Below are positions 7,350 through 32,892 of a DNA stretch of 64,000 bases, piece by piece. Each line of letters starts with the position of its first letter. The stretch's first letter is position 1. Under the pieces are notes generated by a model that saw nothing but the letters and a program-made list of their open reading frames with translations, was not told the origin of the DNA and searched no databases. The translations under genes and the position numbers were made by a program. Source of the DNA: a virus; the IMG/VR virus record IMGVR_UViG_3300031993_000069; one strand, given 5' to 3'.

Positions 7350-7433
7350 GCCCCGGTGGTGAAATGGTAGACACAAGGCACTTAAAATGCCTCGCCGAAA
7401 GGCATGCCAGTTCGACTCTGGCCCGGGGCACCA
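7350..7433 (+). tRNA. tRNA-Leu(TAA), class II
   Basis: Cloverleaf with acceptor GCCCCGG/CCGGGGC, anticodon loop CTTAAAA, long variable arm, A73 and encoded CCA. Confidence 0.8.
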
Positions 7434-7438
7434 CTCAT

Positions 7439-7515
7439 GGCGTCATGGAGAAGGGGCTTAACTCAGCAGCCTCTCAAGCTGCCATTCGCGGGTTCGAATC
7501 CCGCTGACGTCACCA
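7439..7515 (+). tRNA. tRNA-Glu(CTC)
   Basis: Acceptor GGCGTCA/TGACGTC, anticodon stem GCAGC/GCTGC with loop CTCTCAA, T-loop GGTTCGAATCC, CCA. Confidence 0.65.
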
Positions 7516-7636
7516 AGTTGTTAAAAATTTTTAGAAAATATATTTACAATTTAAAAAAATAATTGTATAATATTAATGAGCGTTGAAAAAAGATACGCTA
7601 AATTAAAATGGTCGCAAGACAGGAAGGAAAAGATTT

Positions 7637-7750
7637 ATGGCAAAAGTTATGTTTGGGAACATTCATGAACAACGTAATGATTCAGTATATGGTTGCTGGA
7701 ATATTTTTGCTACTCTTGGATCATCCGGTTTTGTGCAGGTTAATCGATAA
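7637..7750 (+). CDS. small hypothetical peptide (37 aa) inside the tRNA island
   Basis: RBS AGGAAGGAAA 7 nt upstream of the ATG; followed by a strong terminator. Confidence 0.3.
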   Translation: MAKVMFGNIHEQRNDSVYGCWNIFATLGSSGFVQVNR

Positions 7751-7780
7751 GATTAATTAAGAAGAATAACGCATAAATTA

Positions 7781-7812
7781 GGGTGGTCCGAAAAAGACCA
7801 CCCTTTAATTTT
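7781..7812 (+). terminator. rho-independent terminator
   Basis: GGGTGGTC-CGAAAAA-GACCACCC followed by TTTAATTTT. Confidence 0.8.
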
Positions 7813-7813
7813 C

Positions 7814-7899
7814 TGGGGAGATAGCCAAGCGGCAACGGCAGCTGACTGTAAATCAGCCCTCTGACGAGTTCGTAGGTTCGAGTCCTACTCTCCCCACCA
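7814..7899 (+). tRNA. tRNA-Tyr(GTA)
   Basis: Acceptor GGGGAGA/TCTCCCC, anticodon loop CTGTAAA, long variable arm, CCA. Confidence 0.8.
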
Positions 7900-7903
7900 A
7901 CAT

Positions 7904-7980
7904 GGTGTATGGAATCCGACGGTTTTGGATGCTAGTCTGTGAAACTAGATCATTGGGTCCGACTCCCAGCATGCACCCCA
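7904..7980 (+). tRNA. tRNA-His(GTG) with encoded G-1
   Basis: G-1:C73 pair, acceptor GTGTATG/CATGCAC, anticodon loop CTGTGAA, CCA. Confidence 0.75.
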
Positions 7981-7985
7981 GTTAT

Positions 7986-8061
7986 GGGCCGGTAGCTCAG
8001 TTGGTAGAGCACGTGCCTGAAGAGCATGGTGTCGGCGGTTCGATCCCGCCCTGGCCCACCA
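7986..8061 (+). tRNA. tRNA-Phe(GAA)
   Basis: Acceptor GGGCCGG/CTGGCCC, D-arm GCTCAGTTGGTAGAGC, anticodon loop CTGAAGA, CCA. Confidence 0.85.
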
Positions 8062-8076
8062 TAAGAAAGGAAAAGT

Positions 8077-8505
8077 ATGAAAGTTGTATTCTTAGATATC
8101 GATGGCGTATTGAATGATGCTGTTAATATCCACAACCTGATGGATGACAAACCAACAAAAGAGCACTTAGACTGCCTAAAAGCAATCTTAGATGCTACTG
8201 GTGCAAAAGTCGTACTGTCCTCAACTTGGAGATTATTCCCAAACTCCAAGAATATCGTAAAGAATTGTTTACGAAACATTGGCTCTGATATCTATGATAT
8301 AACTAAAGAGCTGCCAAAAGGGAGAGGTGCCGAAATAAAAGAATGGCTTAGTCGACACCCGGAGGTAAATCAGTTCGTTATCTTAGATGACGACATTGCT
8401 GATATTAAGCCATATTACCCAGCGAATATCGTAAAAACGACATTTTATAGGGGATTGCTTCCTCATCACATTGAGCCAGCAATAAAAATCTTAAATGCCG
8501 AGTAA
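8077..8505 (+). CDS. HAD-superfamily hydrolase/phosphatase (142 aa)
   Basis: N-terminal FLDIDGVL (HAD motif I DxDG) and a later ILDDD motif. Sits inside the tRNA island. Confidence 0.6.
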   Translation: MKVVFLDIDGVLNDAVNIHNLMDDKPTKEHLDCLKAILDATGAKVVLSSTWRLFPNSKNIVKNCLRNIGSDIYDITKELPKGRGAEIKEWLSRHPEVNQFVILDDDIADIKPYYPANIVKTTFYRGLLPHHIEPAIKILNAE

Positions 8506-8519
8506 AATCGGCATCACAT

Positions 8520-8596
8520 TGGAGCGTAGCTTAGCTGGTTAAAGCACTCGGCTGATAACCGAGAGACCGCCGGTTCAAATCCGGCCGCTCCAACCA
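8520..8596 (+). tRNA. tRNA-Ile(GAT)
   Basis: Acceptor TGGAGCG/CGCTCCA, anticodon stem CTCGG/CCGAG with loop CTGATAA, CCA. Confidence 0.8.
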
Positions 8597-8600
8597 ATCT

Positions 8601-8675
8601 TGGGGAGTAGCCAAGCGGTAAGGCACGTGGCTTTGAACCATGTATGCGAAGGTTCGAACCCTTCCTCCCCAGCCA
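8601..8675 (+). tRNA. tRNA-Gln(TTG)
   Basis: Acceptor TGGGGAG/CTCCCCA, loop CTTTGAA, CCA. Confidence 0.8.
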
Positions 8676-8743
8676 GTTAGAGCCTATACTTATTTCTAAA
8701 AACTTCCGACTGCAAATCAGAATAATATAGTTAGGCCAAAATT

Positions 8744-8817
8744 AGGGGTATCGTCCAACGGTAGGACTACGGTCTCCAAAACCGTCTATCTGGGTTCGAA
8801 TCCTAGTACCCCTGCCA
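8744..8817 (+). tRNA. tRNA-Trp(CCA)
   Basis: Acceptor AGGGGTA/TACCCCT, anticodon loop CTCCAAA, G73, CCA. Confidence 0.85.
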
Positions 8818-8821
8818 ATGT

Positions 8822-8909
8822 AGAAGCTTGTGTGAGCGGTTGAAACAGTTGGTCTAGAAAACCAATATGCTGAAAGGCATCGAGGGTTCGAATCCCTCAG
8901 CTTCTGCCA
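8822..8909 (+). tRNA. class II tRNA-Ser with anticodon loop CTAGAAA (anticodon AGA, A34)
   Basis: Acceptor AGAAGCT/AGCTTCT, G73, long variable arm TATGCTGAAAGGCAT, anticodon stem TTGGT/ACCAA. Confidence 0.6.
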
Positions 8910-8928
8910 AAAATATTTAAAAAAAGTA

Positions 8929-8957
8929 TTTACAACCTAAATAAATGGTTGTATAAT
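8929..8957 (+). promoter_or_regulatory. sigma70-like promoter
   Basis: TTTACA-N16-TGTATAATAT. Confidence 0.6.
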
Positions 8958-9190
8958 ATGAATGTGAATATGAGGACTGAAAAGACCATCACTCAGTAAG
9001 TTTGAATAGAGTAGGTATGACGACTCCTGACACCGCTTAGTCGTCATGTCTGTGAACAAGATTTCACAGCGGCAGGCTAATGCCGTAAAACTTAGTCTAG
9101 GGTACAGCTGATGCGAACGTGGCAAAGGCCGAGGCCGAAGAAGGGCATAACAGGAGCGGACACCCTCTAAAGAGTGAGGCCACCAGATAT
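8958..9190 (+). ncRNA. unidentified structured ncRNA candidate (~230 nt) transcribed from the 8929 promoter
   Basis: ORF-free and GC-enriched. Contains several perfect hairpins (ATGACGACT...AGTCGTCAT, CTGTGAA...TTCACAG, CGGCA...TGCCG). Ends where tRNA-Glu begins. Confidence 0.35.
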
Positions 9191-9267
9191 GGTGCCGTGG
9201 AGAAATGGTTTAACTCATCACCCTTTCAAGGTGACATTCACGGGTTCGAATCCCGTCGGCATCACCA
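9191..9267 (+). tRNA. tRNA-Glu(TTC)
   Basis: Acceptor GGTGCCG/CGGCATC, anticodon stem TCACC/GGTGA with loop CTTTCAA, CCA. Confidence 0.8.
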
Positions 9268-9272
9268 AATTT

Positions 9273-9359
9273 GGAGAGCTGTGATAATTGGTAGTCGGGC
9301 GGTCTTGAAAACCGTTGGGTCGAAAGGCCTTCAGGGTTCGAGTCCCTGGCTCTCCGCCA
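9273..9359 (+). tRNA. tRNA-Ser(TGA), class II
   Basis: Acceptor GGAGAGC/GCTCTCC, loop CTTGAAA, long variable arm, G73, CCA. Confidence 0.85.
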
Positions 9360-9467
9360 TTATCACTTATTAGTACCCACTTGCTCAATACTAGTAATGA
9401 GCAGACAAAAAAGAACGCCAGGTGAAATAAATTTTAAGGGTTTAAGTTCAGAGTAGCCACTTATCAT

Positions 9468-9544
9468 GGGTCACTAGCTCAATTGGTTAGAGCAGCCGGC
9501 TGTTAACCGGCAGGTTGTGGGTTCGAGTCCCTCGTGGCCCGCCA
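9468..9544 (+). tRNA. tRNA-Asn(GTT)
   Basis: Acceptor GGGTCAC/GTGGCCC, loop CTGTTAA, CCA. Confidence 0.8.
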
Positions 9545-9682
9545 TACGGTCCTTAGATATATTACCTTCTCGTGGTGGGACTGAACAGCTAAAGGATACT
9601 TGGAATTAATAGTATCGGCTAGACGAAACTTATATCGTAAAGACACGACTGGCCTGACGTGCGTAAATAACGGCCACCAAAT

Positions 9683-9757
9683 GGATCGCTCGTATATCGG
9701 TTAGTATACTTGGCTGTCTACCATGGGAGGAGGGTTCGATTCCCTCGCGGTCCGCCA
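9683..9757 (+). tRNA. tRNA-Asp(GTC)-like (atypical anticodon stem)
   Basis: Acceptor GGATCGC/GCGGTCC, loop CTGTCTA, T-arm GAGGGTTCGATTCCCTC, CCA. One mismatch in the anticodon stem and a pyrimidine at position 37. Confidence 0.5.
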
Positions 9758-9945
9758 TTGGAGCCTATACTTATTTCTAATTTGAAGATTCCAAGCCGCC
9801 ATTCGTAGGTTCGAATCCTACCATACCAGTATGGTATGTAGCCAAGCGGGAAGGCAGCGGCCTCAACAAAGCCAGTTAGGCCAAAATTAATTAAAACAAA
9901 TAAAGGAGATTAAGCTTATGTAATTATTTTAAAGGAGAAAAACTT

Positions 9946-10200
9946 ATGAATAGTTACTTTCGTAAAAAATACGAGAAACAAAAGCTTAAAAAACTAGCTG
10001 AAAAATGTGCTGGTTGGTGTGGCGGCAGCTATTATAGCGAAAGAAAAGGCCGTTACATTCGTTTTTGGAAAAGCCAAGGTAAAAATTCCTTCTGGGCTAC
10101 CGAAAAAAGATATGGCAGACGCATCTATCGAAGAAAGGCTAATAAAGTTGATTATAAATTAGCTAAAAAAGCCTTCGATCTTTGGTGGAATGTTTGGTAA
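9946..10200 (+). CDS. small basic hypothetical protein (84 aa)
   Basis: ORF with RBS AAAGGAG; Lys/Arg-rich. Confidence 0.5.
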   Translation: MNSYFRKKYEKQKLKKLAEKCAGWCGGSYYSERKGRYIRFWKSQGKNSFWATEKRYGRRIYRRKANKVDYKLAKKAFDLWWNVW

Positions 10201-10232
10201 AATGCTGTATAATATTAAGAGGTATACTCAGT

Positions 10233-11192
10233 ATGACTAAAATTATCCAAAATTTTTCAAGCAAAAAGCATATTAAAGCACTTCCTGTATTTGATATATT
10301 ACTTTGGAGTGCTGGATTACTTAATTTTAAAAAATTAGGCTATAAAACGAAGCTCTATTGTGAAAAATCAGATATTCCCTTCTTAAAGCGCTGGGGTTTA
10401 TATGATCTCTATGATGAAATTGATAGTAGATATCTAACAAAATTAGAGGAAGATGAGCGCTTTAAACAAATTGATGGTAATTGGTTTTGGTCTGTAAGAA
10501 AGCTATTTTGCATTGAACATGAATATAGTCTTAAATCAAAAGATAAATTCATGTATTTCGATACTGACATCTTACTTTATGACCATATTGAATTGCCAGA
10601 TTGGGCAAACCTATTCGTCTGGTCTATTGAAGAAGAGCCTATTTATATTCCTTGGGAATTCATGTCAGTTCCAGAAGGTTATAAAAAGCCTGAAGAATTC
10701 GATGATGACATGATTGCCTATAATTGTGGTATCTTAGCATTCAGCGATAAAGAAAAGTTTGAGCAATATTTTGCTGAATACTTGAAATTTACACAAGGAA
10801 ATCCCTGTAAATTATTACAAGGAGCTAATACTTCTGAGAAAACCCTCAAAAATATTTGGGCCTGTAATGCAGAGCAACGTATCCTATTAAATATTTCTCG
10901 TGCTGGAGACTGGAAAACTGTTATATTTGCAAATCCAGAGCAAGAAACCGGAATTCTTGGTTTCTATAAGGGCGGTAAACATTTCTATTTACTTCGTGCA
11001 ATTCTAAGAGATTTCACAGATGAAACTCAGGAGTCATTTAGAAACTTCTGGTTAGATATGTATAATGAAAATATCAAAGAATGCTTAGAGGTATTAGAAA
11101 AAGAAAATCCAGCACAATTAAATATATTCTTAGAAATTCCTTGGATTAAAAATTTATATAAATATAATTTCAAGGTAAAAGAATATAAGTAA
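10233..11192 (+). CDS. hypothetical protein (~320 aa)
   Basis: ATG at 10233 follows the TGTATAATAT promoter (10205) and RBS AAGAGG. The track ORF 10182 start lies upstream of the promoter. Confidence 0.6.
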   Translation: MTKIIQNFSSKKHIKALPVFDILLWSAGLLNFKKLGYKTKLYCEKSDIPFLKRWGLYDLYDEIDSRYLTKLEEDERFKQIDGNWFWSVRKLFCIEHEYSLKSKDKFMYFDTDILLYDHIELPDWANLFVWSIEEEPIYIPWEFMSVPEGYKKPEEFDDDMIAYNCGILAFSDKEKFEQYFAEYLKFTQGNPCKLLQGANTSEKTLKNIWACNAEQRILLNISRAGDWKTVIFANPEQETGILGFYKGGKHFYLLRAILRDFTDETQESFRNFWLDMYNENIKECLEVLEKENPAQLNIFLEIPWIKNLYKYNFKVKEYK

Positions 11193-11203
11193 AGGAGATA
11201 GCA

Positions 11204-11494
11204 ATGGGCGAAGATGTTTGGACATTGGGGCTATTTACCCTAAGAGACTACAACCATACAGAACCAGAATTAAAGGCTTGTGACCATTTATTCTGTATTA
11301 CTTATCAACAAGGGCAAGAGGAATATCCAGTAATGCTCTTGTGGAAACGCGGTAAACGATGTTTTACCAGGACCTGTAATGCTCCAGGTCTTAAATTACC
11401 AAAAGATATGCAAACAGCTATGTATCTATCAAGATTATCTACGGCTGCCATTCGTATCTTAAATGGTGAAAAGTTTAACCTATTTGATATATAA
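11204..11494 (+). CDS. hypothetical protein (96 aa)
   Basis: ORF with RBS AAGGAGATAGCA. Confidence 0.5.
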   Translation: MGEDVWTLGLFTLRDYNHTEPELKACDHLFCITYQQGQEEYPVMLLWKRGKRCFTRTCNAPGLKLPKDMQTAMYLSRLSTAAIRILNGEKFNLFDI

Positions 11495-11508
11495 AATAGG
11501 CACGACAT

Positions 11509-11594
11509 TGCGGTGGAGTGGCACGGACAACTATAAACCATTCTAGGCTCATAACCTAGCGATACCGGGTTCGACTCCCGAGCACCGCAACCAG
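11509..11594 (+). tRNA. tRNA-Met(CAT)-like with an enlarged D-region
   Basis: Acceptor TGCGGTG/CACCGCA, anticodon stem CTAGG/CCTAG with loop CTCATAA, T-loop TTCGACT, CCA. Length 85 nt with a 16-nt D-loop. Confidence 0.5.
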
Positions 11595-11875
11595 GAGTAG
11601 TTTTTGTTAGTTTTTGGAGCGCCAAGATCAAATACAAACTAACAGACAGTGTGACTATGTATATGATAGCACTATTCTAAAAATCGAAAGGATATACACC
11701 AGAAATTTGGTCGGCTAGTTGGCGTAAACCTAGCGATAGGAGCGTTTGCAACAGACCCTCAATAACTGCAGTGAGAGGGCAAGCACGAGCCTCCAAGAAG
11801 AGACTGCGATGGATGAAATATTCCTAGTGCACTTGGGCCGAGGACACAAGGTTCACTGGTTAAAGAACAAAACAC

Positions 11876-11951
11876 GGGGTATTGGTGCAGCGGTTAACAT
11901 GCCTCCCTGTCACGGAGGAGACCACGGGTTCGAATCCCGTATGCCCCGCCA
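11876..11951 (+). tRNA. tRNA-Asp(GTC)
   Basis: Acceptor GGGGTAT/ATGCCCC, anticodon stem CCTCC/GGAGG with loop CTGTCAC, CCA. Confidence 0.8.
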
Positions 11952-11980
11952 GTTCTTATTCAATTTATTTAGGAGGAGTT

Positions 11981-12283
11981 ATGATTATTACATTTAATGA
12001 TTTTTATGTCAATGTAACAGAAAATAATGTGCATATTCATGACTCTTACAAGATAAAAGGTAAGAAAAGAAAGCTTGAAATCATTAATGCAATCATAGCT
12101 TTCTGTCCAGAAGCTTTCAAAACTAGAACAATTAAGTCAGTTCTGAGAGAGTGGCGTGCACATAATGTCTTATATAAATTACATATTGCTAGAAATAGCA
12201 CAATGCATACAGACATTGAAGCACATCAAAAATTATTTTATAAAATTAGCTATTTACTTATTAATATATTCGGTATAGAATAA
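11981..12283 (+). CDS. hypothetical protein (100 aa)
   Basis: ATG with RBS AGGAGGAG 5 nt upstream, directly after tRNA-Asp. Confidence 0.5.
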   Translation: MIITFNDFYVNVTENNVHIHDSYKIKGKKRKLEIINAIIAFCPEAFKTRTIKSVLREWRAHNVLYKLHIARNSTMHTDIEAHQKLFYKISYLLINIFGIE

Positions 12284-12289
12284 GTATAT

Positions 12290-12365
12290 GGCTGGGTAGC
12301 CAAGTGGTTAAGGCGTCAAGCTCATACCTTGAAGATCGTCAGTTCAAATCTGACCCCAGCTACCA
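12290..12365 (+). tRNA. tRNA-Met(CAT)
   Basis: Acceptor GGCTGGG/CCCAGCT (G1·U72), loop CTCATAC, CCA. Confidence 0.7.
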
Positions 12366-12370
12366 GGTAT

Positions 12371-12445
12371 GCTCGCTTAATTCAGCGGGAGAAGGCAATC
12401 CTTACAAGATTGAGGTCGGCAGTTCGAATCTGTCAGCGAGCACCA
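12371..12445 (+). tRNA. tRNA-Val(TAC)
   Basis: Acceptor GCTCGCT/AGCGAGC, anticodon stem CAATC/GATTG with loop CTTACAA, CCA. Confidence 0.75.
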
Positions 12446-12644
12446 CGGCATGTATGCAATTATAAAACGCAGCCTACCGGTAAAGTAGGTGCTCTGAGTA
12501 GTCTCGAAGTAAGAGCTTTGTGGAATATTGCTAAATCGAGACTTTAGTAACAATATTCTAGGTGCAATTCCCACCATGCCAACCACCGCTCGGCTAGAGC
12601 ACAGCAAATCATACGGCTGTGTAGGAGAATCCCCGAGCAACCAC

Positions 12645-12718
12645 GCGGGAATAGGACAGTGGTAGTCCATCTGCTTGCCATGCAGACTACGCGGGTTCGA
12701 TTCCCGTTTCCCGCTCCA
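12645..12718 (+). tRNA. tRNA-Gly(GCC)
   Basis: Acceptor GCGGGAA/TTCCCGC, loop TTGCCAT, CCA. Confidence 0.8.
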
Positions 12719-12789
12719 CCAGGACAGATAAAGATTAGGTTCTTTATTAGGTTCTATGGCTGGACAAATCGATAAAACCAGCCACATTT

Positions 12790-12863
12790 GCGGGTATCGT
12801 CCAATGGTAGGGCCTCTGCCTTCCAAGCAGAAGATACCGGTTCGATCCCGGCTACCCGCTCCA
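12790..12863 (+). tRNA. tRNA-Gly(TCC)
   Basis: Acceptor GCGGGTA/TACCCGC, loop CTTCCAA, CCA. Confidence 0.8.
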
Positions 12864-12892
12864 TGCAGTATTTAGAAGGAGAAAATGCAATG

Positions 12893-12985
12893 AAAACACT
12901 TAAACTCAGTAAACTAAGTCGCCGTCGCTGTATAGCATGTTTTCGTTGTTGTCTTATAAATACCGCGTTAGCTCAATTGGATTAG
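12893..12985 (+). CDS. small Cys-rich basic peptide (30 aa) candidate
   Basis: RBS AGAAGGAGAAAATGCAATG. The peptide MKTLKLSKLSRRRCIACFRCC... has CxxC..CC spacing. Overlaps the 5' end of tRNA-Arg. Confidence 0.2.
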   Translation, partial: KTLKLSKLSRRRCIACFRCCLINTALAQLD

Positions 12986-13039
12986 AGCATATCGCTACGA
13001 ACGATAAGGTTGTGGGTTCGAGCCCTACACGCGGTGCCA
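12962..13039 (+). tRNA. tRNA-Arg(ACG)
   Basis: Acceptor ACCGCGT/ACGCGGT, loop CTACGAA, CCA. Confidence 0.8.
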
Positions 13040-13045
13040 GACATA

Positions 13046-13122
13046 GGATAGGTACCCAAGTGGCTTAAGGGAGCGGTCTGCAACACCGTTATTCGTGGGT
13101 TCGAATCCCATCCTATCCTCCA
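13046..13122 (+). tRNA. tRNA-Cys(GCA)
   Basis: Acceptor GGATAGG/CCTATCC, loop CTGCAAC, CCA. Confidence 0.8.
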
Positions 13123-13125
13123 AAT

Positions 13126-13200
13126 GGTCGTATAGCTCAACGGCAGAGCGGGCTCCTTATAAGGGCTAGGTTCCTGGTTCGAATCCAGGTGCGACCACCA
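13126..13200 (+). tRNA. tRNA-Ile(TAT) (AUA-decoding type)
   Basis: Acceptor GGTCGTA/TGCGACC, anticodon stem GGCTC/GGGCT (2 G·U) with loop CTTATAA, CCA. Confidence 0.55.
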
Positions 13201-13301
13201 AAACATGTTAATAGCACGCTCCTTTATGAAAAATCTTCAATATAAAGGAGTTTATTTATTTCAGCAAATATTGTATAATATAAAAGCAAGGAGCTATAAA
13301 A

Positions 13302-13820
13302 ATGATTGGTAAACACTTAAAAGACTATAAAAAAGCTTATAAAGCTGACCGCAGAGAAAACAGAAGAACTTGCGTTAAAAGAAATTCTGATTGGAAAAAA
13401 CGCTGGTTACCATTTATTAAGTATGATCATGATTTTGACGGCTTCTTCCTAATTGAACTTATGGTTCATAAATTACATATTATGCTTGATTACTATGACC
13501 ATGGCAAATATTGTATGCAAGTCGATGAGAGCCGACTTGAAATTGTTGAAAGCTTAAAAGAAGCTTGTAGACTTGGTGATTTAATCTTAGAGGATGATTT
13601 CAATGAACCTGCCTATAAAGTTATGATGGAACACCACCGTATGTGGACTGAGCCATGCAAAGACAATAGTCATCTTTGTGAAATTAAAATGGAATGGGAT
13701 AGCCCAGAGGCTAAGGCTGAATATGATAGGCTTGAAAAAGAAACTGATGCTCTCAGAGAAAAGACTATCGATGAATTCTTCGATTTTGTTAGAAAACATT
13801 ATCGTGAATGGTGGGATTAA
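13302..13820 (+). CDS. hypothetical protein (172 aa)
   Basis: ORF behind TGTATAATATAAAAGCAAGGAG. Confidence 0.6.
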   Translation: MIGKHLKDYKKAYKADRRENRRTCVKRNSDWKKRWLPFIKYDHDFDGFFLIELMVHKLHIMLDYYDHGKYCMQVDESRLEIVESLKEACRLGDLILEDDFNEPAYKVMMEHHRMWTEPCKDNSHLCEIKMEWDSPEAKAEYDRLEKETDALREKTIDEFFDFVRKHYREWWD

Positions 13821-13861
13821 TTAGTCCTCATCGAAAATGTCATTGAAAAAAACTAGACATT

Positions 13862-13952
13862 GGAGGAATACCCAAGAGGCCGAAGGGGACGGTTTGCTAA
13901 ACCGTTAGTGGTCGCAAGGCCAGCGAGGGTTCAAATCCCTCTTCCTCCGCCA
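13862..13952 (+). tRNA. tRNA-Ser(GCT), class II
   Basis: Acceptor GGAGGAA/TTCCTCC, anticodon stem ACGGT/ACCGT with loop TTGCTAA, long variable arm, G73, CCA. Confidence 0.8.
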
Positions 13953-13957
13953 TCTAT

Positions 13958-14034
13958 GCCCCGGTAACCGAATTGGCATAGGTACTAGACTTAGAATCTA
14001 GGTTCTGTGGGTTCAAGTCCCACTCGGGGTACCA
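13958..14034 (+). tRNA. class I (77 nt) tRNA with anticodon TAG (a Leu anticodon) and short variable loop
   Basis: Acceptor GCCCCGG/TCGGGGT (two G·U), anticodon stem CTAGA/TCTAG with loop CTTAGAA, 4-nt variable loop, T-loop GGTTCAAGTCC, A73, CCA. Confidence 0.55.
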
Positions 14035-14037
14035 TAT

Positions 14038-14415
14038 GGGCTCGTACTGGTTTCGATTGGTATTTGATGCTTATGACTACAGCAAGCTGATAACTTACTA
14101 TCAAACAAAAACAAACGACAAAACAAACTTTATGGCACACCTTGCCAACAACCAAATGGTTGCTGCTCGCGCCTAGTTCGCGAGAATGGTGATTGAGCTA
14201 GATAAGGTCGAATTTAGTTCTCTATTAATCAGACCTCGATGTTTATATCTAAGTAACTCCATATAAATGTTTAAATAAAGAGTAGACAACTGCTAGTATC
14301 GGATCGAAGGACTTGAGGTTCGCCGATAAAAAGAATATTTCTCAGGTTAAAGCTGTAATTAACGTTGTGGGGGTTTGGTATCAAGACAGGAGTTCGATTC
14401 TCCTCGGGTCCACCA
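14038..14415 (+). ncRNA. ssrA: tmRNA (transfer-messenger RNA)
   Basis: The 5' end GGGCTCGTACTGGTTTCGATTGG resembles the canonical tmRNA 5' end GGGGCUGAUUCUGGAUUCGAC. The 3' end AGGAGTTCGATTCTCCTCGGGTCCACCA pairs with the 5' acceptor and has G3·U70 and A73 (Ala identity). Length 378 nt. The internal frame ...NNQMVAARA-TAG is a candidate tag ORF. Confidence 0.75.
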
Positions 14416-14419
14416 TAAT

Positions 14420-14506
14420 GGGCGAGTGGCGTAACTGGTAGCCGCAATGGTCTAAGAAGCCATTGACCGAAAGGTCGTAGGGGTTCAAGTCCCCTCTCGC
14501 CCACCA
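14420..14506 (+). tRNA. tRNA-Leu(AAG), class II, A34
   Basis: Acceptor GGGCGAG/CTCGCCC, anticodon stem ATGGT/GCCAT with loop CTAAGAA, long variable arm TGACCGAAAGGTC, A73, CCA. Confidence 0.6.
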
Positions 14507-14561
14507 GAGTTATCTTTAATAATATTGTATAATATATTAGATATTGAAAGGAATTTATCTT

Positions 14562-14894
14562 ATGTATAGTTTACAAGAATTAATTGAACATGGATATGTC
14601 GATAGTATTACAACTGATGGAACACATCTTGGTGATGGTTATACTATTGTTGTTAAACTAAGCAGATATTCTATTGGTAAGATTACAATTAATGTTGGTA
14701 TTGATGAATACTTAGATGATGCTGTTACGCTTATTAATGGTATTATTGATATTCAAGAAAGCTTAAATAAAGAAGCTAAACCGGAAGAAAAGCCAACTAT
14801 TAGACATGTAACTGATCCAGATGAAATAAAGGAAATACTTTCTGGAACAGCAATTAAAGACACAAAAATTGAACCAGAGGATTATGCGGAATAA
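14562..14894 (+). CDS. hypothetical protein (110 aa)
   Basis: ATG behind promoter TGTATAATAT (14525) and RBS GAAAGGAA. Confidence 0.55.
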   Translation: MYSLQELIEHGYVDSITTDGTHLGDGYTIVVKLSRYSIGKITINVGIDEYLDDAVTLINGIIDIQESLNKEAKPEEKPTIRHVTDPDEIKEILSGTAIKDTKIEPEDYAE

Positions 14895-15073
14895 TGTATC
14901 AAATTATTAAAGACGATAAATATTATCTATATAATGATATAGGCGAAGAATTAATGACAATTACCTTCGACAATTCATTACCAGGAGACCAAGTAGTTAT
15001 TACTACACAGGATGAAGTTTATGCTGGTCCAATAAAATTTGTTACTTTTTCTGGAGATATTCCAAAAGAGTAG
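14894..15073 (+). CDS. small hypothetical protein (59 aa)
   Basis: ATG overlaps the upstream stop (ATAATG). Coding-like composition. Confidence 0.35.
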   Translation: MYQIIKDDKYYLYNDIGEELMTITFDNSLPGDQVVITTQDEVYAGPIKFVTFSGDIPKE

Positions 15074-15089
15074 CTTGTATATTATTAAT

Positions 15090-15186
15090 AGGGGCTTAGT
15101 GTAACGGCAGCACAACGGTCTTCAAAACCGCAAAGCGGGGGCCTCCAAAACCCCAGGTGCGGGTTCGAATCCTGCAGCCCCTGCCA
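15090..15186 (+). tRNA. Trp-like opal-suppressor tRNA, anticodon TCA, with an unusual 25-nt extra arm
   Basis: Acceptor AGGGGCT/AGCCCCT, G73, CCA. The D-arm and anticodon stem ACGGT/ACCGC are nearly identical to tRNA-Trp(CCA) at 8744, but the loop is CTTCAAA. A 25-nt insertion AAAGCGGGGGCCTCCAAAACCCCAG between the anticodon and T arms forms a hairpin. Own promoter TTGTATATTATTAAT sits immediately upstream. Confidence 0.7.
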
Positions 15187-15252
15187 TATAGAGCCTGTAC
15201 TTATTTCTATCACAAACCTTGAAATTTGCACGCAGTAGTCAGGCCATTTATT

Positions 15253-15438
15253 TTTATGAAATTTAAGTATAGAATTATTTGGGTTAATACAGTTAAAGGA
15301 AAACAAGAATATGTTGATATCGATGACCAGCATATTGTATTGTTTGTCGCTAAGAAAAAAGTTAGCGATGGAATGCAAGGAGTCATCATTCAAGTTTCTG
15401 GTGATCCATCTATGACTGACCCAGATGATGCTAGCTGA
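15253..15438 (+). CDS. hypothetical protein (61 aa)
   Basis: ORF downstream of motif A. Confidence 0.3.
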   Translation, partial: FMKFKYRIIWVNTVKGKQEYVDIDDQHIVLFVAKKKVSDGMQGVIIQVSGDPSMTDPDDAS

Positions 15439-15504
15439 CCGGCTATTGATGCGAATGCTTCTGAAGCTGAAAATAAAATAATTTAAAAAAATTAAAAAAA
15501 ACTA

Positions 15505-15534
15505 TTTACAAAAAATAAAAAAGTATTGTATAAT
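15505..15534 (+). promoter_or_regulatory. sigma70-like promoter
   Basis: TTTACA-N16-TGTATAATAAT. Confidence 0.6.
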
Positions 15535-15539
15535 AATAT

Positions 15540-16180
15540 TGTGAGTGTTAAGCAAGCACTCCAAAAGTGTTCTTTGAAAAATTTTAATTGGCACCTCGAT
15601 GAAGACATCTTGCACGATGGTCGAGGCTCGGCTCTAAGATGATGATAACTGGTGGGATACTGCTGGGTAAGTTGAAACTTCCAAAGTGATGAAGAAGTAA
15701 ACCTATTTAATTAGGATTGAGTCGATGGCGCAATTTGTTGCAGCGATTTAGATGAAAACACATATGCGGGTCCGACAAGAAGCTCTGGCCGTAAGGTCAT
15801 CTCACCTGTGGTATTAAGCCTGAGAAACTTAATGCCCGGTAACTCAAAGGAAGGACGCGACTTGATGTCAAGAAATTGACTATAACTGGTAATGTGTTTG
15901 TACAAGTAGCCGTATGTCGTACTACAAAGCTTTAACAGGATATTTATTAAATACTTTGCTGAAGCTCGGTGAAAGTTGATAGGTAAAGGTCCTATCTGTG
16001 GAAGTCGTAAGACCATTGGAGAAGTTATAGGGTAGCTCCCTGTGACTCAGCCTCCCGTGAGCATCCATTAATAAAGTCAAGCAATAAGGGTTGTATGGTG
16101 AAGACCGGAAATTAAAATTTTTTAAAGAGCACTTAAAAGTATTGCTAAATTAAGTAGACTTAAAAAGTCAGAAGGAGAAA
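15540..16180 (+). ncRNA. unidentified ~640-nt ORF-free structured RNA candidate
   Basis: Lies between a strong promoter and a small ORF. GC-enriched relative to the genome, with no ORF above 60 aa on the + strand. No RNase P P4 motif (GGAAAGUCC) seen. Confidence 0.3.
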
Positions 16181-16184
16181 AAGC

Positions 16185-16274
16185 ATGTTAAACTTAGTTA
16201 CTGTTAACGTTAGACCTACAGCAACAGCCAAACCAGCGTTGGTAAGTTTTGATATGCTCATGACCTCTGATAGA
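16185..16274 (+). CDS. small peptide (29 aa) candidate
   Basis: RBS AAGGAGAAAAAGC then ATG; followed by a perfect terminator. Confidence 0.25.
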
Positions 16275-16302
16275 TAAGTTAACTTAAAAACTTAACTAAG
16301 AT

Positions 16303-16335
16303 ACCGCAGTTGTGATGAGCAGCTGCGGTTTTTTT
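16303..16335 (+). terminator. rho-independent terminator
   Basis: CCGCAGTTGTGATGAGCAGCTGCGG followed by TTTTTTT. Confidence 0.85.
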
Positions 16336-16506
16336 AAGAAAAAATAACTAGCAATGTAAAACTCATAAGAGAGACGTGACGAAACCAAGGACTTCTGTGC
16401 CTTGGTCCCAAAAGTCTAAGGGATGAAATGAAGCCAGCAGTGCACAAAAAACTTGTTGCCTGATAAAAAAAGAGGCTGGTCAGGCAGAAGAAGAACGAAA
16501 GCTAGT

Positions 16507-16590
16507 TAATTATATGGGCCGATAGTTTAATTGGGAAAATACCCGCCCTGCAAGCGGGAGTTAGGGGTTCAAATCCCCACGTGTCCACCA
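16507..16590 (+). pseudogene. tRNA-like element (Ala-TGC-like anticodon arm, T-arm and CCA) with a non-pairing acceptor stem
   Basis: CCCGC-CCTGCAA-GCGGG anticodon-like arm, GGGGTTCAAATCCCC T-arm and a 3' CCA. The 5' GGGCCGA does not pair with the 3' CGTGTCC. Confidence 0.3.
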
Positions 16591-16595
16591 TTTAT

Positions 16596-16671
16596 GGGGG
16601 TGTAGCTCATCTGGGAGAGCACTTGATTAGCATTCAAGAGGTAGCGAGTTCGATCCTCGTCACTTCCACCA
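16596..16671 (+). tRNA. tRNA-Ala(AGC), A34
   Basis: Acceptor GGGGGTG/CACTTCC with G3·U70 and A73. Anticodon stem CTTGA/TCAAG with loop TTAGCAT. CCA. Confidence 0.6.
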
Positions 16672-16735
16672 GACAGAACCTGTGCTTATTTCTAACGTTA
16701 AATTTGGGATTTAAAAAGTAGCAGCCAGGTCAATT

Positions 16736-16811
16736 GCCGCCTTAGCTCAACTGGCAGAGCAACCGCCTTGTAAGCGGTAGGTTACTGGTTCGATTCCGGT
16801 AGGCGGCACCA
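16736..16811 (+). tRNA. tRNA-Thr(TGT)
   Basis: Acceptor GCCGCCT/AGGCGGC, loop CTTGTAA, CCA. Confidence 0.8.
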
Positions 16812-16815
16812 CTTT

Positions 16816-16892
16816 GGGGGTGTAGCTCAATTGGGAGAGCGCTCGCCTTGCAAGCGAGGGGTTGCGGGTTCAAGTCCCGTCACGTTCCACCA
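16816..16892 (+). tRNA. tRNA-Ala(TGC) with a 1-nt bulge in the 3' acceptor strand
   Basis: Acceptor GGGGGTG with G3·U70, anticodon stem CTCGC/GCGAG with loop CTTGCAA. The 3' strand CACGTTCC carries one extra nt. CCA. Confidence 0.6.
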
Positions 16893-17049
16893 CTAAAATG
16901 TAAGCCTATACTTATTTCTCCTCCTAAATTGTTGGGGGCCTTAGTTAGGCAATCAAAAAATTCATGCCACGGAAGGAAAACCGTATAAACCCTTACAGCT
17001 TCGTTCTTAGCCAGACGTAGACTAAGATAAAGTTAAGCTGATGTAATTT

Positions 17050-17126
17050 CGGGAGTTGGCTCAGCTTGGTAGAGCACTTGATTTGGGATCAAGGGGTCAA
17101 GGGTTCGAATCCCTTACTCCCGACCA
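17050..17126 (+). tRNA. tRNA-Pro(TGG)
   Basis: Acceptor CGGGAGT/ACTCCCG, loop TTTGGGA, CCA. Confidence 0.8.
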
Positions 17127-17251
17127 TTAGAGAACCTGTACTTATTTCTTAGCTTTGGGAGCCGCTGTTTGTTGGTTCGAGTCCAGCCTTCCCGACCATT
17201 ATCGGGAAGTAGGCAAATTGGTAAAGCCGGCGTTTATTAGTCAGGTCATAT

Positions 17252-17327
17252 GCGCTTTTAGCTCAGTTGGGAGAGCGTCTGCTTGACGTGCAGAAGGTCG
17301 TAGGTTCGAGCCCTGCAAGGCGCACCA
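17252..17327 (+). tRNA. tRNA-Val(GAC)
   Basis: Acceptor GCGCTTT/AAGGCGC, anticodon stem TCTGC/GCAGA with loop TTGACGT, CCA. Confidence 0.75.
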
Positions 17328-17331
17328 TTAT

Positions 17332-17408
17332 GCTCCTCTAGCCCAACTGGCAGAGGCAATGAGCTCAAACCTCATTCAGTATCGGTTCGAATCCGATGGG
17401 GAGTACCA
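17332..17408 (+). tRNA. class I (77 nt) tRNA with anticodon CAA (a Leu anticodon) and short variable loop
   Basis: Acceptor GCTCCTC/GGGGAGT, anticodon stem ATGAG/CTCAT with loop CTCAAAC, 5-nt variable loop, A73, CCA. Confidence 0.5.
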
Positions 17409-17427
17409 AAAAATTATTAAAAAACTG

Positions 17428-17456
17428 TTTACAACGCAGAATAAATGTTGTATAAT
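17428..17456 (+). promoter_or_regulatory. sigma70-like promoter
   Basis: TTTACA-N14-TTGTATAAT. Confidence 0.55.
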
Positions 17457-17566
17457 TATGAATGTAAGGTCGCGATGTGTGAGCATTAAACTATCGGCCC
17501 CTCACCTCCGAAAACCGTAGGCCGAGTCGGACCTTATATATAGATTGTTCAAAAAGGAGAAGAGTT

Positions 17567-17647
17567 ATGATGACAATGAACAAGAAAAACATCAAGAATA
17601 GAAAAACTAGAAAAACTAGTTCATTTAGTCATGGCTTAATTCAGTAA
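17567..17647 (+). CDS. small basic peptide (26 aa) candidate
   Basis: RBS AAAAGGAGAAGAG then ATGATG; followed by a terminator hairpin and T-run at ~17678-17712. Confidence 0.25.
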   Translation: MMTMNKKNIKNRKTRKTSSFSHGLIQ

Positions 17648-17772
17648 AACACTAATAATACGTTAACGTAAGATAGAGTGCCGAGTGGTTAAGCCGCCCG
17701 GCATTTTTTCTGGGATTACGTTAGCGCAACGGACAGGGACGACATAAGAGCGTGCTTTTCCAGAAATCACAT

Positions 17773-17849
17773 ACCTCCGTAGCTCAACTGGACAGAGCAT
17801 CGGTCTTCTAAACCGCAGGTTGGGCGTTCGAGTCGCCCCGGGGGTGCCA
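17773..17849 (+). tRNA. tRNA-Arg(TCT)
   Basis: Acceptor ACCTCCG/CGGGGGT, loop CTTCTAA, CCA. Confidence 0.75.
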
Positions 17850-17853
17850 AATC

Positions 17854-17928
17854 GCGTCCATAGCCAAGTGGTATGGCAATCGGCTTTTAACCGATGTACC
17901 GAGGGTTCGAATCCTTCTGGGCGCACCA
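17854..17928 (+). tRNA. tRNA-Lys(TTT)
   Basis: Acceptor GCGTCCA/TGGGCGC, loop CTTTTAA, CCA. Confidence 0.8.
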
Positions 17929-17933
17929 CATAT

Positions 17934-18010
17934 GCCTCCATAGCAAAATTGGCTAATGCACCTGACTCTTAATCAGGGGATTCTGGGTTCGAGTCCCAGT
18001 GGGGGTACCA
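17934..18010 (+). tRNA. tRNA-Lys(CTT)
   Basis: Acceptor GCCTCCA/TGGGGGT, loop CTCTTAA, CCA. Confidence 0.75.
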
Positions 18011-18012
18011 AT

Positions 18013-18088
18013 GCGCCGGTAGCTCAGCCGGTAGAGCACGTGACTTTTAATCACGGGGTCCAGAGTTCGAACCTCTGCCGGCGCACCA
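18013..18088 (+). tRNA. tRNA-Lys(TTT), second copy
   Basis: Acceptor GCGCCGG/CCGGCGC, loop CTTTTAA, CCA. Confidence 0.75.
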
Positions 18089-18090
18089 AT

Positions 18091-18165
18091 GCTGATTTAG
18101 TTTAATTGGTAAAATAATTCTCTCGTAAAGAATAGTAGTGTGTTCGAAACATACAATCAGCACCA
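18091..18165 (+). tRNA. tRNA-Thr(CGT), AT-rich
   Basis: Acceptor GCTGATT/AATCAGC, anticodon stem ATTCT/AGAAT with loop CTCGTAA, T-arm GTGTGTTCGAAACATAC, CCA. Confidence 0.7.
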
Positions 18166-18261
18166 TTAGAGCCTATGCTTATTTCTAGCTCAATGAGAGC
18201 GTTTGACATTTAATCAAAAGGTATAGCTAGGCCATTCTTGATAAATCTACTGTATAATATA

Positions 18262-18500
18262 ATATGGTTGCGATGAATTTTGCAGTTTCGACCCATGTGC
18301 ACAGAAATAGAAACTGCCTATAGGTTAATGTTGACCATAGTTATTGGTGCAGAGTACGTAATCTGCGAGGTAAACTCCGGTGTATGTTCATTCGCCGACC
18401 TATGAAGCTAAAAAATGAACGGAGATAGCGTATAAAAATGATTTATGAAAAGTACGTAACGCCCATGAGGAGAGGCCTCATGCTTCAATAAAAAACAAAA
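18262..18500 (+). ncRNA. unidentified structured RNA candidate (~240 nt) behind the 18250 promoter
   Basis: ORF-free. Ends in the hairpin CATGAGG-AGAG-GCCTCATG immediately before the next tRNA. Confidence 0.3.
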
Positions 18501-18503
18501 CTT

Positions 18504-18579
18504 GCCGGCTTAGCTCATCTGGTAGAGCAATTCACTAGTAATGAATAGGTGGTCAGTTCGAGTCTGGCAGCCGGCACCA
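18504..18579 (+). tRNA. tRNA-Thr(AGT), A34
   Basis: Acceptor GCCGGCT/AGCCGGC, anticodon stem ATTCA/TGAAT with loop CTAGTAA, CCA. Confidence 0.6.
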
Positions 18580-24158: not shown

Positions 24159-25109
24159 ATGATTAGAGATGCACTCGGTGACAGAATGAAAGGTTATGAA
24201 GCTGTCACAAAAACTACATTAGTAAGCAGAATGCCAGTCATTATTAGATTAGATGGCTGTCATTTCCATACTTTTTGTCGTGGATTTAAAAAGCCATTCG
24301 ATCCTTTAATGGTTAAGACCATGCAAGCAACCATGAAATATCTCTGTGAGAATATTCAAGGCTGTGTTTTAGGCTATACTCAAAGTGATGAAATCACTCT
24401 TGTTTTAGTCGATTATAGAAAGCATAATTCCTCTGCTTGGTTTGATAATGAAGTCCTTAAAATTACGTCAGTCTCTGCTTCTTTAGCAACATTTGCATTC
24501 AATAAATTCTTCAACGAATTCTATCTTGAACAACTTGCTGAAAAGGGTGAAGCTGATGAATATGATTTAGTCTATGATAGAAAACGTAGAATTGGTGCAT
24601 ACTTCGATGCAAGAGTTTTCAATGTCCCAAGAGAAGATGTTACAAACTGTGTTCTTTGGAGACAATTAGACGCTGAAAGAAACTCAATCAATTCTCTTGC
24701 ACAATCTTTATTCAGTCATAAGTCTCTTCAAGGTTTAAATCTTAAAGCTACTATGACTAAGATCGAAACAGAAAAAAGCATTGTCTGGGGTGATTTACCA
24801 ACAACTCAAAAACGTGGTTCTTGCTGCATCAAAGATGTTTGGTATACTTTAGATGATGGTCAAAATGTTAAGAATAAGTCACACATTTGTTATAAAGATA
24901 AAACAGGTGAATTCTATTTTGATGGTGATGGTTTCTACTTCTATGCTACTGGCTTAAAAGATAACCTTAATTGTGCTTTTTCTGCCCAAGGTGTTAAGAT
25001 GAATGTTAAAGAGCATTCTGCTTGGAGAATTGATAATGAAATTCCAAGATTTATCGATGAAGGCAGAGAATATATCGAAAAGTTAATCTATCCAGAAGAC
25101 GAGGAATAA
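24159..25109 (+). CDS. Thg1-like protein (tRNA-His guanylyltransferase / 3'-5' nucleotidyl-transferase family)
   Basis: VIIRLDGCHFHTF...FKKPFDP...GYTQSDEITLVL matches the Thg1/TLP core R.DG..F..F.....KP.D...YGQSDE.S.V. Confidence 0.7.
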   Translation: MIRDALGDRMKGYEAVTKTTLVSRMPVIIRLDGCHFHTFCRGFKKPFDPLMVKTMQATMKYLCENIQGCVLGYTQSDEITLVLVDYRKHNSSAWFDNEVLKITSVSASLATFAFNKFFNEFYLEQLAEKGEADEYDLVYDRKRRIGAYFDARVFNVPREDVTNCVLWRQLDAERNSINSLAQSLFSHKSLQGLNLKATMTKIETEKSIVWGDLPTTQKRGSCCIKDVWYTLDDGQNVKNKSHICYKDKTGEFYFDGDGFYFYATGLKDNLNCAFSAQGVKMNVKEHSAWRIDNEIPRFIDEGREYIEKLIYPEDEE

Positions 25110-26667: not shown

Positions 26668-26883
26668 AATTTAATTATCGTATAATATTTTAGAACTTCT
26701 ATGTAGGGCAATTTTATTCGCTAAATTAATGTGACGACGTAAGTTGTCATTACATAGAAAAGGGCACAACCACGGTAACGTGGCGTCGCAAAACTAAAGG
26801 GCCTTGGGAGAGGCAGCCAGTTGCTTCTGTGAAACCGTTATTCATGGAAGTTTTTTATTTATATGGACAAGGAGAACACACAC

Positions 26884-29336: not shown

Positions 29337-29351
29337 AATATCAAAATTTAT

Positions 29352-30170: not shown

Positions 30171-30289
30171 AAAAAATGATACGCTAAATTTATTACTACG
30201 GACTTTCCAAAAAAGTATCGTATAATATTTTAACGGATTCGCGAATTGGTATCCATAGCAATTCAGTCCGAAAGAGCAAGGAGAAAGAT

Positions 30290-30643: not shown

Positions 30644-30649
30644 TATCGG

Positions 30650-32830: not shown

Positions 32831-32892
32831 AATATAATAGTTCAAAAGTCTCAAAAGGACGATTTGTAGCCCAAAAGGCGAAGGAGAATTAT

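Follow-up and report, generated by a model that had tools for sequence, protein, structure and literature searches.

Phage genes for transfer-messenger RNA (tmRNA, the product of ssrA) are listed in genome surveys but, to our knowledge, have almost never been examined, and we know of no test of their role in infection. Here we analyze one such gene, located at positions 14038-14415 of a 64,000-nucleotide stretch of viral DNA (IMG/VR record IMGVR_UViG_3300031993_000069), referred to below as the window. Phage tmRNAs as such are documented, and the present gene is another case. Complete tmRNAs are known in Bacillus phage G and in the mycobacteriophages Bxz1, Catera and others (PMC4131195), huge metagenomic phages carry tmRNA (PMC7162821) and are reported to encode both tmRNA and SmpB (PMC7162821), and one survey found tmRNA in 402 of 18,146 phage genomes, about 2.3% (PMC9004378).

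The RNA encoded in the window has the elements of the bacterial one-piece SsrA RNA (Rfam family RF00023), namely a tRNA-like domain with G3.U70, A73 and CCA, a T-arm, a long helix P2, a probable pseudoknot PK1, a short frame without a start codon and with an A at -4, a helix 5 that holds the stop codon, three further pseudoknots and a length of 378 nucleotides (nt). Unlike bacterial SsrA, it is phage-encoded in a tRNA array, its central region is very divergent (66.5 bits), and its tag, at 19 codons, is long, with Asp as the first residue (Asn in one lineage) and A-R-A or A-C-A in place of a final A-A. It shares with the tmRNAs of huge and cultured phages that it is complete and belongs to a large phage with many tRNAs and translation-related genes (PMC7162821, PMC4131195), but it comes from a different host and phage group (rumen metagenomes) and has a group-specific tag motif. 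It has no detectable nucleotide similarity to any GenBank phage record, and at least 76 tmRNAs of viral contigs resemble it, among the matches listed, only in the tRNA-like domain. Marine phages such as Melnitz also carry an ssrA, proposed to maintain the hijacked translation machinery (PMC9004378), but those genes are circularly permuted and linked to a glutamine riboswitch, whereas the gene in the window is of the standard one-piece type. The element of mycobacteriophage DS6A, likewise a phage-borne tmRNA relative, consists of little beyond the tRNA-like domain and is perhaps an inhibitor (PMC4131195); the present gene has a full messenger part and pseudoknots. The comparative series assembled below, four lineages of which one includes a strain variant, points to selection on both the RNA and its peptide, with a tag that lacks Ala-Ala, and makes testable the question of whether phage trans-translation serves ribosome recycling only or also the fate of the tagged proteins.

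Identification of a complete one-piece tmRNA gene

A search of the whole window with ARAGORN called a tmRNA on the plus strand at exactly 14038-14415, with nt 80-139 coding for the tag DKTNFMAHLANNQMVAARA and its stop. The full length of the Rfam covariance model RF00023 (model positions 1-374 of 374) was matched; the score was 66.5 bits, the gathering score being 47, and the E-value was 1e-23 when the whole window was searched and 9e-26 with the local region. Both searches bear out the initial annotation, which had placed a 378-nt tmRNA at these coordinates from the letters of the DNA and had named ARAGORN and the Rfam tmRNA models as checks. The sequence elements it had quoted were all recovered: the 5' end GGGCTCGTACTGGTTTCGATTGG at 14038-14060, the T-arm AGGAGTTCGATTCTCCT at 14388-14404 and the 3' strand CGGGTCC, A and CCA at 14405-14415. 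Likewise, G3.U70 and A73, which it had read as alanine identity elements, are both present in the acceptor pairing, and the internal frame ending in ANNQMVAARA does stop at TAG (14174-14176) and not at TGA.

The gene is collinear with the one-piece model, and its scores with the permuted two-piece tmRNA model RF04321, 18.8 and 14.9 bits, were far below the gathering score of 47. Neither ARAGORN nor Rfam called a tRNA inside 14038-14415, and the T-arm is present without an anticodon arm. Minimum free energy (MFE) z-scores were uninformative, at -1.19 for the tmRNA and -0.14 for a neighboring non-coding stretch. Every structural feature of the tmRNA family that could be tested is present except an Ala-Ala tag end, PK1 being supported in its hairpin stem and putative in its second stem. 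We put the probability at roughly three in four that 14038-14415 is a functional one-piece tmRNA gene of a large phage from rumen-type metagenomes, lying inside a tRNA array.

Homologous tmRNAs in related phage contigs

Relatives were sought with a neighboring open reading frame (ORF) of 172 amino acids (aa) at 13302-13820. An exact-protein look-up found the same locus on six metagenome contigs (JGI and ENA samples), of which four carry an identical tmRNA, one (L006) differs in the tmRNA by 17 substitutions and one (L002) has no tmRNA. L002 (7713-9595) is 99.9% identical to the window through tRNA-Ser(gct), after which a gene for a CCA-adding enzyme on the opposite strand stands in place of the tRNA-Leu and the tmRNA; its departure, from window position 13953 onward, marks either a strain without the cassette or a rearrangement or assembly join. 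Searching by homology with the 172-aa ORF gave over 130 relatives, 50-85% identical and located on contigs as long as 257,600 bp. Relatives sit on 200-257 kb contigs, and some of these have a hit to the T4-type capsid protein Gp23; the style of the sample labels suggests that the relatives come from rumen or ruminant-gut studies.

Among the relatives examined, three further lineages (L139, L149 and L152) have homologous tmRNAs in the same gene order, tRNA-Ser, tRNA-Leu, tmRNA and tRNA-Leu, which is found at about 117 kb on the 224-kb contig (Table 1). The neighboring protein is only 72-81% identical across the four tmRNA lineages. The tmRNA of L152 was not called by ARAGORN and was found by nhmmer and Rfam. 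All three homologues score higher than the RF00023 gathering score of 47.

Searches of wider collections returned no further members. The tmRNA (blastn) and 16 kb of structural genes (megablast) had no match in GenBank phage records, and neither the exact 5' 23-mer, the neighboring protein nor a group-specific pattern matched in IMG/VR. A generic tmRNA pattern matched at least 120 loci in IMG/VR, and in these ARAGORN called at least 76 tmRNAs, none of them related beyond the tRNA-like domain among the matches listed. In 185,579 species-representative genomes the group-specific pattern gave two chance matches, neither with a tmRNA, and hence no clue to the host. A scan of metagenome DNA returned one contig already in the set and unrelated tmRNAs. 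One weak hit (L131, tag ADKNAFALAA) was rejected as a homologue, having only general tmRNA features. Protein searches for a cultured relative or host gave distant hits only, with at most 50% identity for the Thg1-like protein described below. The gene is new as the tmRNA of a phage group that is not represented in the GenBank phage or IMG/VR collections searched, and it has a group-specific tag.

Secondary structure and covariation

The secondary structure was assembled from the Rfam alignment and folds of sub-segments (Table 1). In the window sequence 93 of 93 proposed pairs are standard. When the full-length RNA is folded without constraints, the acceptor stem, P2 in its three segments, the hairpin of PK1, the first PK3 stem and the second PK4 stem are recovered independently. 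The acceptor stem is composed of the pairs G1-C, G2-C, G3.U, C4-G, U5.G, C6-G and G7-C, followed by the discriminator A.

Table 1 Features of the window tmRNA, the adjacent tRNA genes and the homologous tmRNAs (nt, position within the tmRNA)
Feature	Position	Strand	Details	Basis
Complete one-piece tmRNA (ssrA)	14038..14415	+	378 nt, CCA encoded	ARAGORN, RF00023
Upstream tRNA genes	13862..14034	+	tRNA-Ser(gct) 13862-13952; tRNA-Leu(tag) 13958-14034, ending 3 nt before tmRNA	ARAGORN, Rfam
Acceptor stem, 5' strand	14038..14044	+	GGGCUCG, including G3 of the G3.U70 alanine identity pair	7/7 pairs standard
Helix P2, 5' strand	14057..14083	+	nt 20-46, partner 14352-14384	Unconstrained MFE fold
Pseudoknot PK1	14084..14103	+	nt 47-66; hairpin stem 51-55/62-66, second stem 47-49/57-59	
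Tag frame	14117..14176	+	resume codon GAC 14117-14119, 19 codons DKTNFMAHLANNQMVAARA, stop TAG 14174-14176	ARAGORN, Rfam alignment
Helix 5	14166..14184	+	nt 129-147, stop codon in loop	RNAfold
Pseudoknot PK2	14195..14236	+	stems 158-166/175-183 and 168-172/195-199	Covariation
Pseudoknot PK3	14238..14283	+	stem 201-211/224-234; proposed second stem 219-222/243-246	First stem in MFE fold
Pseudoknot PK4	14298..14348	+	stems 261-271/282-290 and 273-281/303-311	Compensatory changes, window vs L006
Helix P2, 3' strand	14352..14384	+	nt 315-347	MFE fold, covariation
T-arm	14388..14404	+	AGGAG UUCGAUU CUCCU	Rfam posterior probability at maximum
Acceptor stem, 3' strand	14405..14415	+	CGGGUCC, discriminator A 14412, CCA 14413-14415	Sequence
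Downstream tRNA-Leu(aag)	14420..14506	+	starts 4 nt past tmRNA	ARAGORN, Rfam
Homologue L139	L139:10952-11331		224,388-bp contig (ERZ27257203 k141_9072977); 380 nt; tag DNTFNPAFIASNNFVGARA	Rfam 76.4 bits
Homologue L149 (same as L150)	L149:3328-3743		Logan SRR32996210; 416 nt; tag DKTLNPAFIASNSFVGARA	Rfam 55.7 bits
Homologue L152 (same as L153)	L152:10948-11313		ENA ERZ28612948; 366 nt; tag NKIFNSALIAGNHMVAACA, read from alignment	Rfam 60.1 bits

The strain variant L006 provides the closest comparison. Its 17 substitutions relative to the window fall on paired positions in 15 cases, and 13 of these 15 preserve pairing. Three pairs show double compensatory changes (C263-G288 to U-A, A274-U310 to G-C and G280-C304 to A-U), seven single changes turn a wobble pair into a Watson-Crick pair or the reverse, and one terminal pair is lost. 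In simulations that scattered 17 substitutions randomly, with an equal transition bias, the probability of at least three double compensatory changes was 5e-5 for the whole RNA and 1e-3 for nt 164-332, figures that apply to a structure settled with both sequences in view.

For the more distant lineages, a covariance model was built from the window and L006 and then used to align five distinct sequences (the four lineages and L006); pairs were counted on this alignment with two safely aligning pseudoknot stems added, 80 pairs in all. Across the four lineages 96.8% of the cells are paired, compared with 33-45% when partners are slid by 1-3 columns, and 30 of the 80 pairs changed on both sides; none of 500 shuffles reached the observed values. 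Covarying pairs occur in the T-arm, in helix 5 and P2, at pair 6 of the acceptor stem and in the pseudoknots, where they affect the hairpin of PK1, both PK2 stems and the first stem each of PK3 and PK4. An independent MAFFT alignment showed the same compensations in the ends, P2, PK1, helix 5 and PK2.

The elements differ in how they vary. G3.U70, A73, CCA and the A at -4 are all invariant, with G3.U the same in the five sequences, and acceptor pair 6 is changed from C-G to A-U in two lineages. Five of the 20 pairs of P2 changed on both sides and eight on one side. In the PK1 hairpin stem of L139 two pairs changed on both sides and one on one side. Helix 5 retains its outer stem in every lineage, although L139 and L149 have a 13-nt insertion, and its pair C131-G145 is U-A in L152. 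Both-side changes affect 5 of 9 pairs in the first stem of PK2, 1 of 5 in its second stem and 3 of 5 in the T-arm. The first stem of PK3 shows two G.U to A-U changes in L006 and, on the model-fitted alignment, both-side changes in 9 of 11 pairs with 88.7% of cells paired; the second stem of PK3 is putative. All three double compensatory changes between the window and L006 lie in PK4 (263/288, 274/310 and 280/304), two of them in its second stem, and are accompanied by wobble changes. In L149 the PK4 region is swapped for a different sequence, which fits reports that tmRNA pseudoknots are replaceable (PMC2481249).

The tag reading frame

In Escherichia coli 12 nt separate PK1 from the resume codon, and the frame is set by an almost invariant A at the fourth base upstream of that codon (PMC2481249). 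A plausible resume codon after PK1, whose lack the initial annotation had named among the outcomes that would refute it, is present here as GAC at nt 80, 13 nt past the PK1 hairpin as against the 12 nt of E. coli. Every lineage has an A at nt 76 (-4); the base before it is C in the window and U in the other three lineages. The Rfam alignment sets its consensus resume codon on this GAC. By alignment the resume codon of L152 is AAC (Asn) and not G-initial.

In 4 of 4 lineages the tag frame runs for 19 codons to a UAG or UAA located in the helix 5 loop. It alone is open in every lineage; stops interrupt the other two frames in some. L139 and L149 differ at 9 of the 57 nt of the frame; third codon positions account for 8 of these differences (binomial P about 1e-3), and the two peptides share 16 of 19 residues. 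This third-position bias and the constant 19-codon frame argue that the peptide is translated and constrained. Moreover, all four differences between L139 and L149 in codons 2-5 are at third positions, which points to a start of translation at or before nt 80. We considered the invariant GCA at nt 98 as an alternative resume codon, and it is less likely, as it has no A at -4 in any lineage and third-position changes occur upstream of it; the C-terminus of the tag is the same for either start. Taken as a whole, comparison of the sequences shows selection acting, in a virus, on the architecture of the RNA as well as on the peptide that it encodes.

In all four lineages the tag ends in V-[A/G]-A-[R/C]-A, that is, in A-R-A or, in L152, A-C-A. 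We compared it with the tags that ARAGORN predicted for other tmRNAs of the viral collection. Of 55 unique tags among the matches listed, 46 end in AA, one ends in RA and two start with D, and the median length is 11 residues with a maximum of 23. The codons of this tag end are also the 5' strand of helix 5; where L152 has Cys for Arg, the opposite strand carries a compensating change, so the unusual tag end may reflect RNA structure as much as peptide. The start of the tag, DKTNF, resembles the Bacillus subtilis tag, AGKTNSFNQNVALAA, a string that does occur in the literature; the likeness hints at a Firmicute origin and proves nothing.

Proposed function and alternative explanations

Following the standard tmRNA pathway (summarized in PMC4131195 and PMC3985003), we infer the expression, charging, SmpB partner and phage benefit of this RNA and the fate of the proteins that it tags. 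It would be co-transcribed with the flanking tRNAs and released by host RNase P and 3' nucleases, with CCA already encoded, and host alanyl-tRNA synthetase would charge it via G3.U70 and A73. With EF-Tu and SmpB, the latter either the host's or a phage copy encoded outside the window, the charged RNA would enter ribosomes stalled on broken or stop-less 3' ends of mRNA. The nascent chain would be handed to the alanine of the tmRNA and translation would resume at the GAC of nt 80, adding (A)DKTNFMAHLANNQMVAARA, for a predicted C-terminal addition of ADKTNFMAHLANNQMVAARA on tagged proteins, until termination at the UAG in the loop of helix 5 allows the ribosome to be recycled. The phage would probably gain in that ribosomes are kept available while mRNA is degraded or cleaved during infection.

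Several observations weigh against a functional phage tmRNA that acts in this way. The Rfam score is modest, and the central part of the gene was aligned at low posterior probability. The pair counts given above rest on an alignment fitted to the model structure, which favors that structure; the second stem of PK1 is only 3 bp, invariant and proposed from the sequence by itself; and the absence of changes from nt 1-163 of L006 may be due to patchy recombination and not to selection, the divergence between the two contigs being patchy. No SmpB family was hit among the 58 ORFs of the 64-kb window. Most relatives examined have no tmRNA within about 10 kb on either side of the 172-aa marker gene; this patchy presence and the lack of the gene in the near-identical L002 indicate that the tmRNA is accessory and dispensable in the phage group. 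Finally, the tag never ends in Ala-Ala: its last residue is Ala and the penultimate one is not, a departure from a feature that is typical of the family and not strictly defining. A mutation in either of the last two alanines of the E. coli tag raises the Michaelis constant (KM) for ClpXP (PMC7652416), and so the canonical signal for this protease is probably weakened here.

The tag end also bears on a different account, in which the tmRNA is real but acts mainly against trans-translation of the host, competing for SmpB, EF-Tu and stalled ribosomes, and its poor ClpXP tag spares or reroutes truncated proteins, those of the phage included. The lack of an Ala-Ala end in four lineages, set against its presence in 46 of the 55 unique tags of other viral contigs among the matches listed, would suit this account, as would the higher KM that a changed penultimate or last Ala causes for ClpXP (PMC7652416), the third-position bias between L139 and L149, which points to selection on the peptide itself, and the report that a molecule consisting of only the tRNA-like domain is a strong inhibitor of tmRNA, perhaps by titrating SmpB (PMC4131195). 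However, the last three sense codons lie in or beside the stem of helix 5 and the R-to-C change of L152 is compensated, so the tag end may be a by-product of RNA structure. Furthermore, tags that do not end in LAA are still degrons in some bacteria, as with the Mycoplasma tag recognized by Lon. We consider a mainly anti-host role unlikely. We also give a low probability to a reading for this group of rumen phages in which the phage-specific 20-residue tag ending V-x-A-R/C-A would evade Ala-Ala-directed ClpXP of the host, sparing or rerouting rescued chains, and the tmRNA may work together with a phage tRNA(UCA), whose apparent read-through of single in-frame TGA codons in structural genes would carry ribosomes to the ends of messages terminated by TGA and raise the need for rescue.

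Loss of function altogether fits the data poorly. A decaying relic, host-derived and carried along in the tRNA array, could account for the patchy presence in related contigs, the modest Rfam score, the unusual tag end and the L152 homologue with its AAC resume codon that ARAGORN did not call, but it would not be expected to keep its functional elements intact in four lineages whose neighboring protein has drifted to 72-81% identity. Compensatory changes are widespread, G3.U70, A73, CCA and the A at -4 do not vary, and the tag frame, with its third-position bias, is never shifted or interrupted; a relic is therefore very improbable. The same can be said with more force of a context artefact in which the gene is the bacterial host's own ssrA beside an integrated prophage. 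The ssrA gene is a common phage integration site. Many contigs of the viral collection bear host-type tmRNAs at contig ends, for example with the enterobacterial tag ANDETYALAA, and the use of ssrA by prophages is documented (PMC9004378). The present gene, however, lies 14 kb into a 64-kb same-strand stretch with phage-type genes on both sides, 3-4 nt from tRNA genes within a 36-tRNA array; no integrase family was hit among the 58 window ORFs, the same arrangement stands mid-contig (about 117 kb) on a 224-kb contig, and the group-specific pattern had no true match in the 185,579 species-representative genomes. A host gene is hardly credible, and the initial annotation was right to call the tmRNA phage-encoded, a description that agrees with the one-strand genes, the phage-type proteins and the 200-257 kb contigs of the relatives. 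A functional tmRNA of the phage itself remains the reading we prefer.

The tRNA array and its phage

From 7350 to 18579 ARAGORN called 36 tRNA genes, and a further one at 16516-16587 (40.6 bits), which ARAGORN did not list, was reported by Rfam; the tmRNA is indeed embedded in a tRNA island, as first described. No terminator-like site was found in 13100-15300, and promoter-like sites were fewer there than in shuffled sequences. Given the spacing of 3-4 nt, the lack of a terminator and of any promoter excess, the simplest reading is that one precursor transcript is cut into the mature RNAs.

All sizeable ORFs of the window are on the plus strand. Their products include collagen-like tail fibre proteins, a holin, PhoH, a methyltransferase, thymidylate synthase, DHFR, MazG, a member of the RNA-ligase family and, at 24159-25109, a Thg1-like tRNA-His guanylyltransferase. 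A HAD domain of the 'Swiss Army Knife' RNA-repair proteins is encoded at 8077-8505. In L139 a PTH2 peptidyl-tRNA hydrolase (12110-12571) is encoded about 0.8 kb downstream of the tmRNA, and L146 encodes ribosomal protein S21, a class I tRNA synthetase and a ribosome hibernation factor within 7944-14780. The RNA-repair-type proteins in the island and the PTH2 of L139 are consistent with a translation-maintenance module. The analysis thus draws attention to a group of rumen phages of about 200-260 kb that have islands dense in translation and RNA-repair genes, a tRNA that probably suppresses UGA, and several structured RNAs of large size.

In-frame TGA codons and a tRNA with anticodon UCA

A 97-nt tRNA with anticodon UCA, labeled 'SeC' by ARAGORN, is encoded at 15090-15186, 0.7 kb from the tmRNA, and recurs in many relatives. 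We counted plus-strand genes that continue in frame and free of stops into and through the next gene, and found this for 5 of 8 genes ending in TGA, 1 of 43 ending in TAA and 0 of 10 ending in TAG. The TGA junctions that are candidates for read-through lie at 6175, 41241, 45922, 49195 and 58906, and two in-frame spacers past TGA are 40 and 56 codons long. The pattern points to the decoding of single in-frame TGA codons in a number of genes, most of them structural.

Given that TGA is apparently suppressible in this phage, the TAG stop of the tag frame may be meaningful: ending in TAG or TAA in all lineages would keep termination of the tag safe, although with four lineages only the choice of stop codon is not statistically informative. 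Suppressor tRNAs create substrates of trans-translation by read-through (Ueda et al. 2002, as cited in PMC3985003). A functional link between the tmRNA and tRNA(UCA) can be hypothesized, in which the suppressor may push ribosomes past TGA stops to the ends of messages. A strict co-occurrence of the two RNAs is refuted by L151, L144 and L146, which have the tRNA without a nearby tmRNA; L152 has the tmRNA and no tRNA(UCA) within the 14.5 kb scanned around it.

Further structured RNAs in the window

The tRNA island also contains a full-length ROOL RNA at 15571-16127 (RF03087, 213 bits against a gathering score of 99). ROOL RNAs are reported to be encoded by phages near tRNA islands and to form a nanocage, a setting that the present copy fits (PMC12286853, PMC5737381). 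A c-di-GMP-I riboswitch aptamer at 26753-26828 (52.4 bits; gathering score 35) is found upstream of an ORF of 224 aa without a Pfam hit, and the pair of riboswitch and ORF is conserved in the 224-kb relative L139 (13444-13521).

The window is densely packed with genes except for about 3.7 kb at 29337-33018, where no ORF of 80 aa or more occurs apart from 30290-30643. No Rfam family reached threshold in this stretch; an abiF RNA motif match at 31484-31519 is below it (34.5 bits against a gathering score of 37, E 1e-3). Pieces of the stretch are 74-93% identical to ORF-poor stretches of L145, L151, L152 and L135-138. One module, at about 29365-29625, has a promoter-like element upstream and a consensus fold in which 21 of 68 pairs covary over three lineages. 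The conserved modules of this stretch are candidates for new structured phage RNAs.

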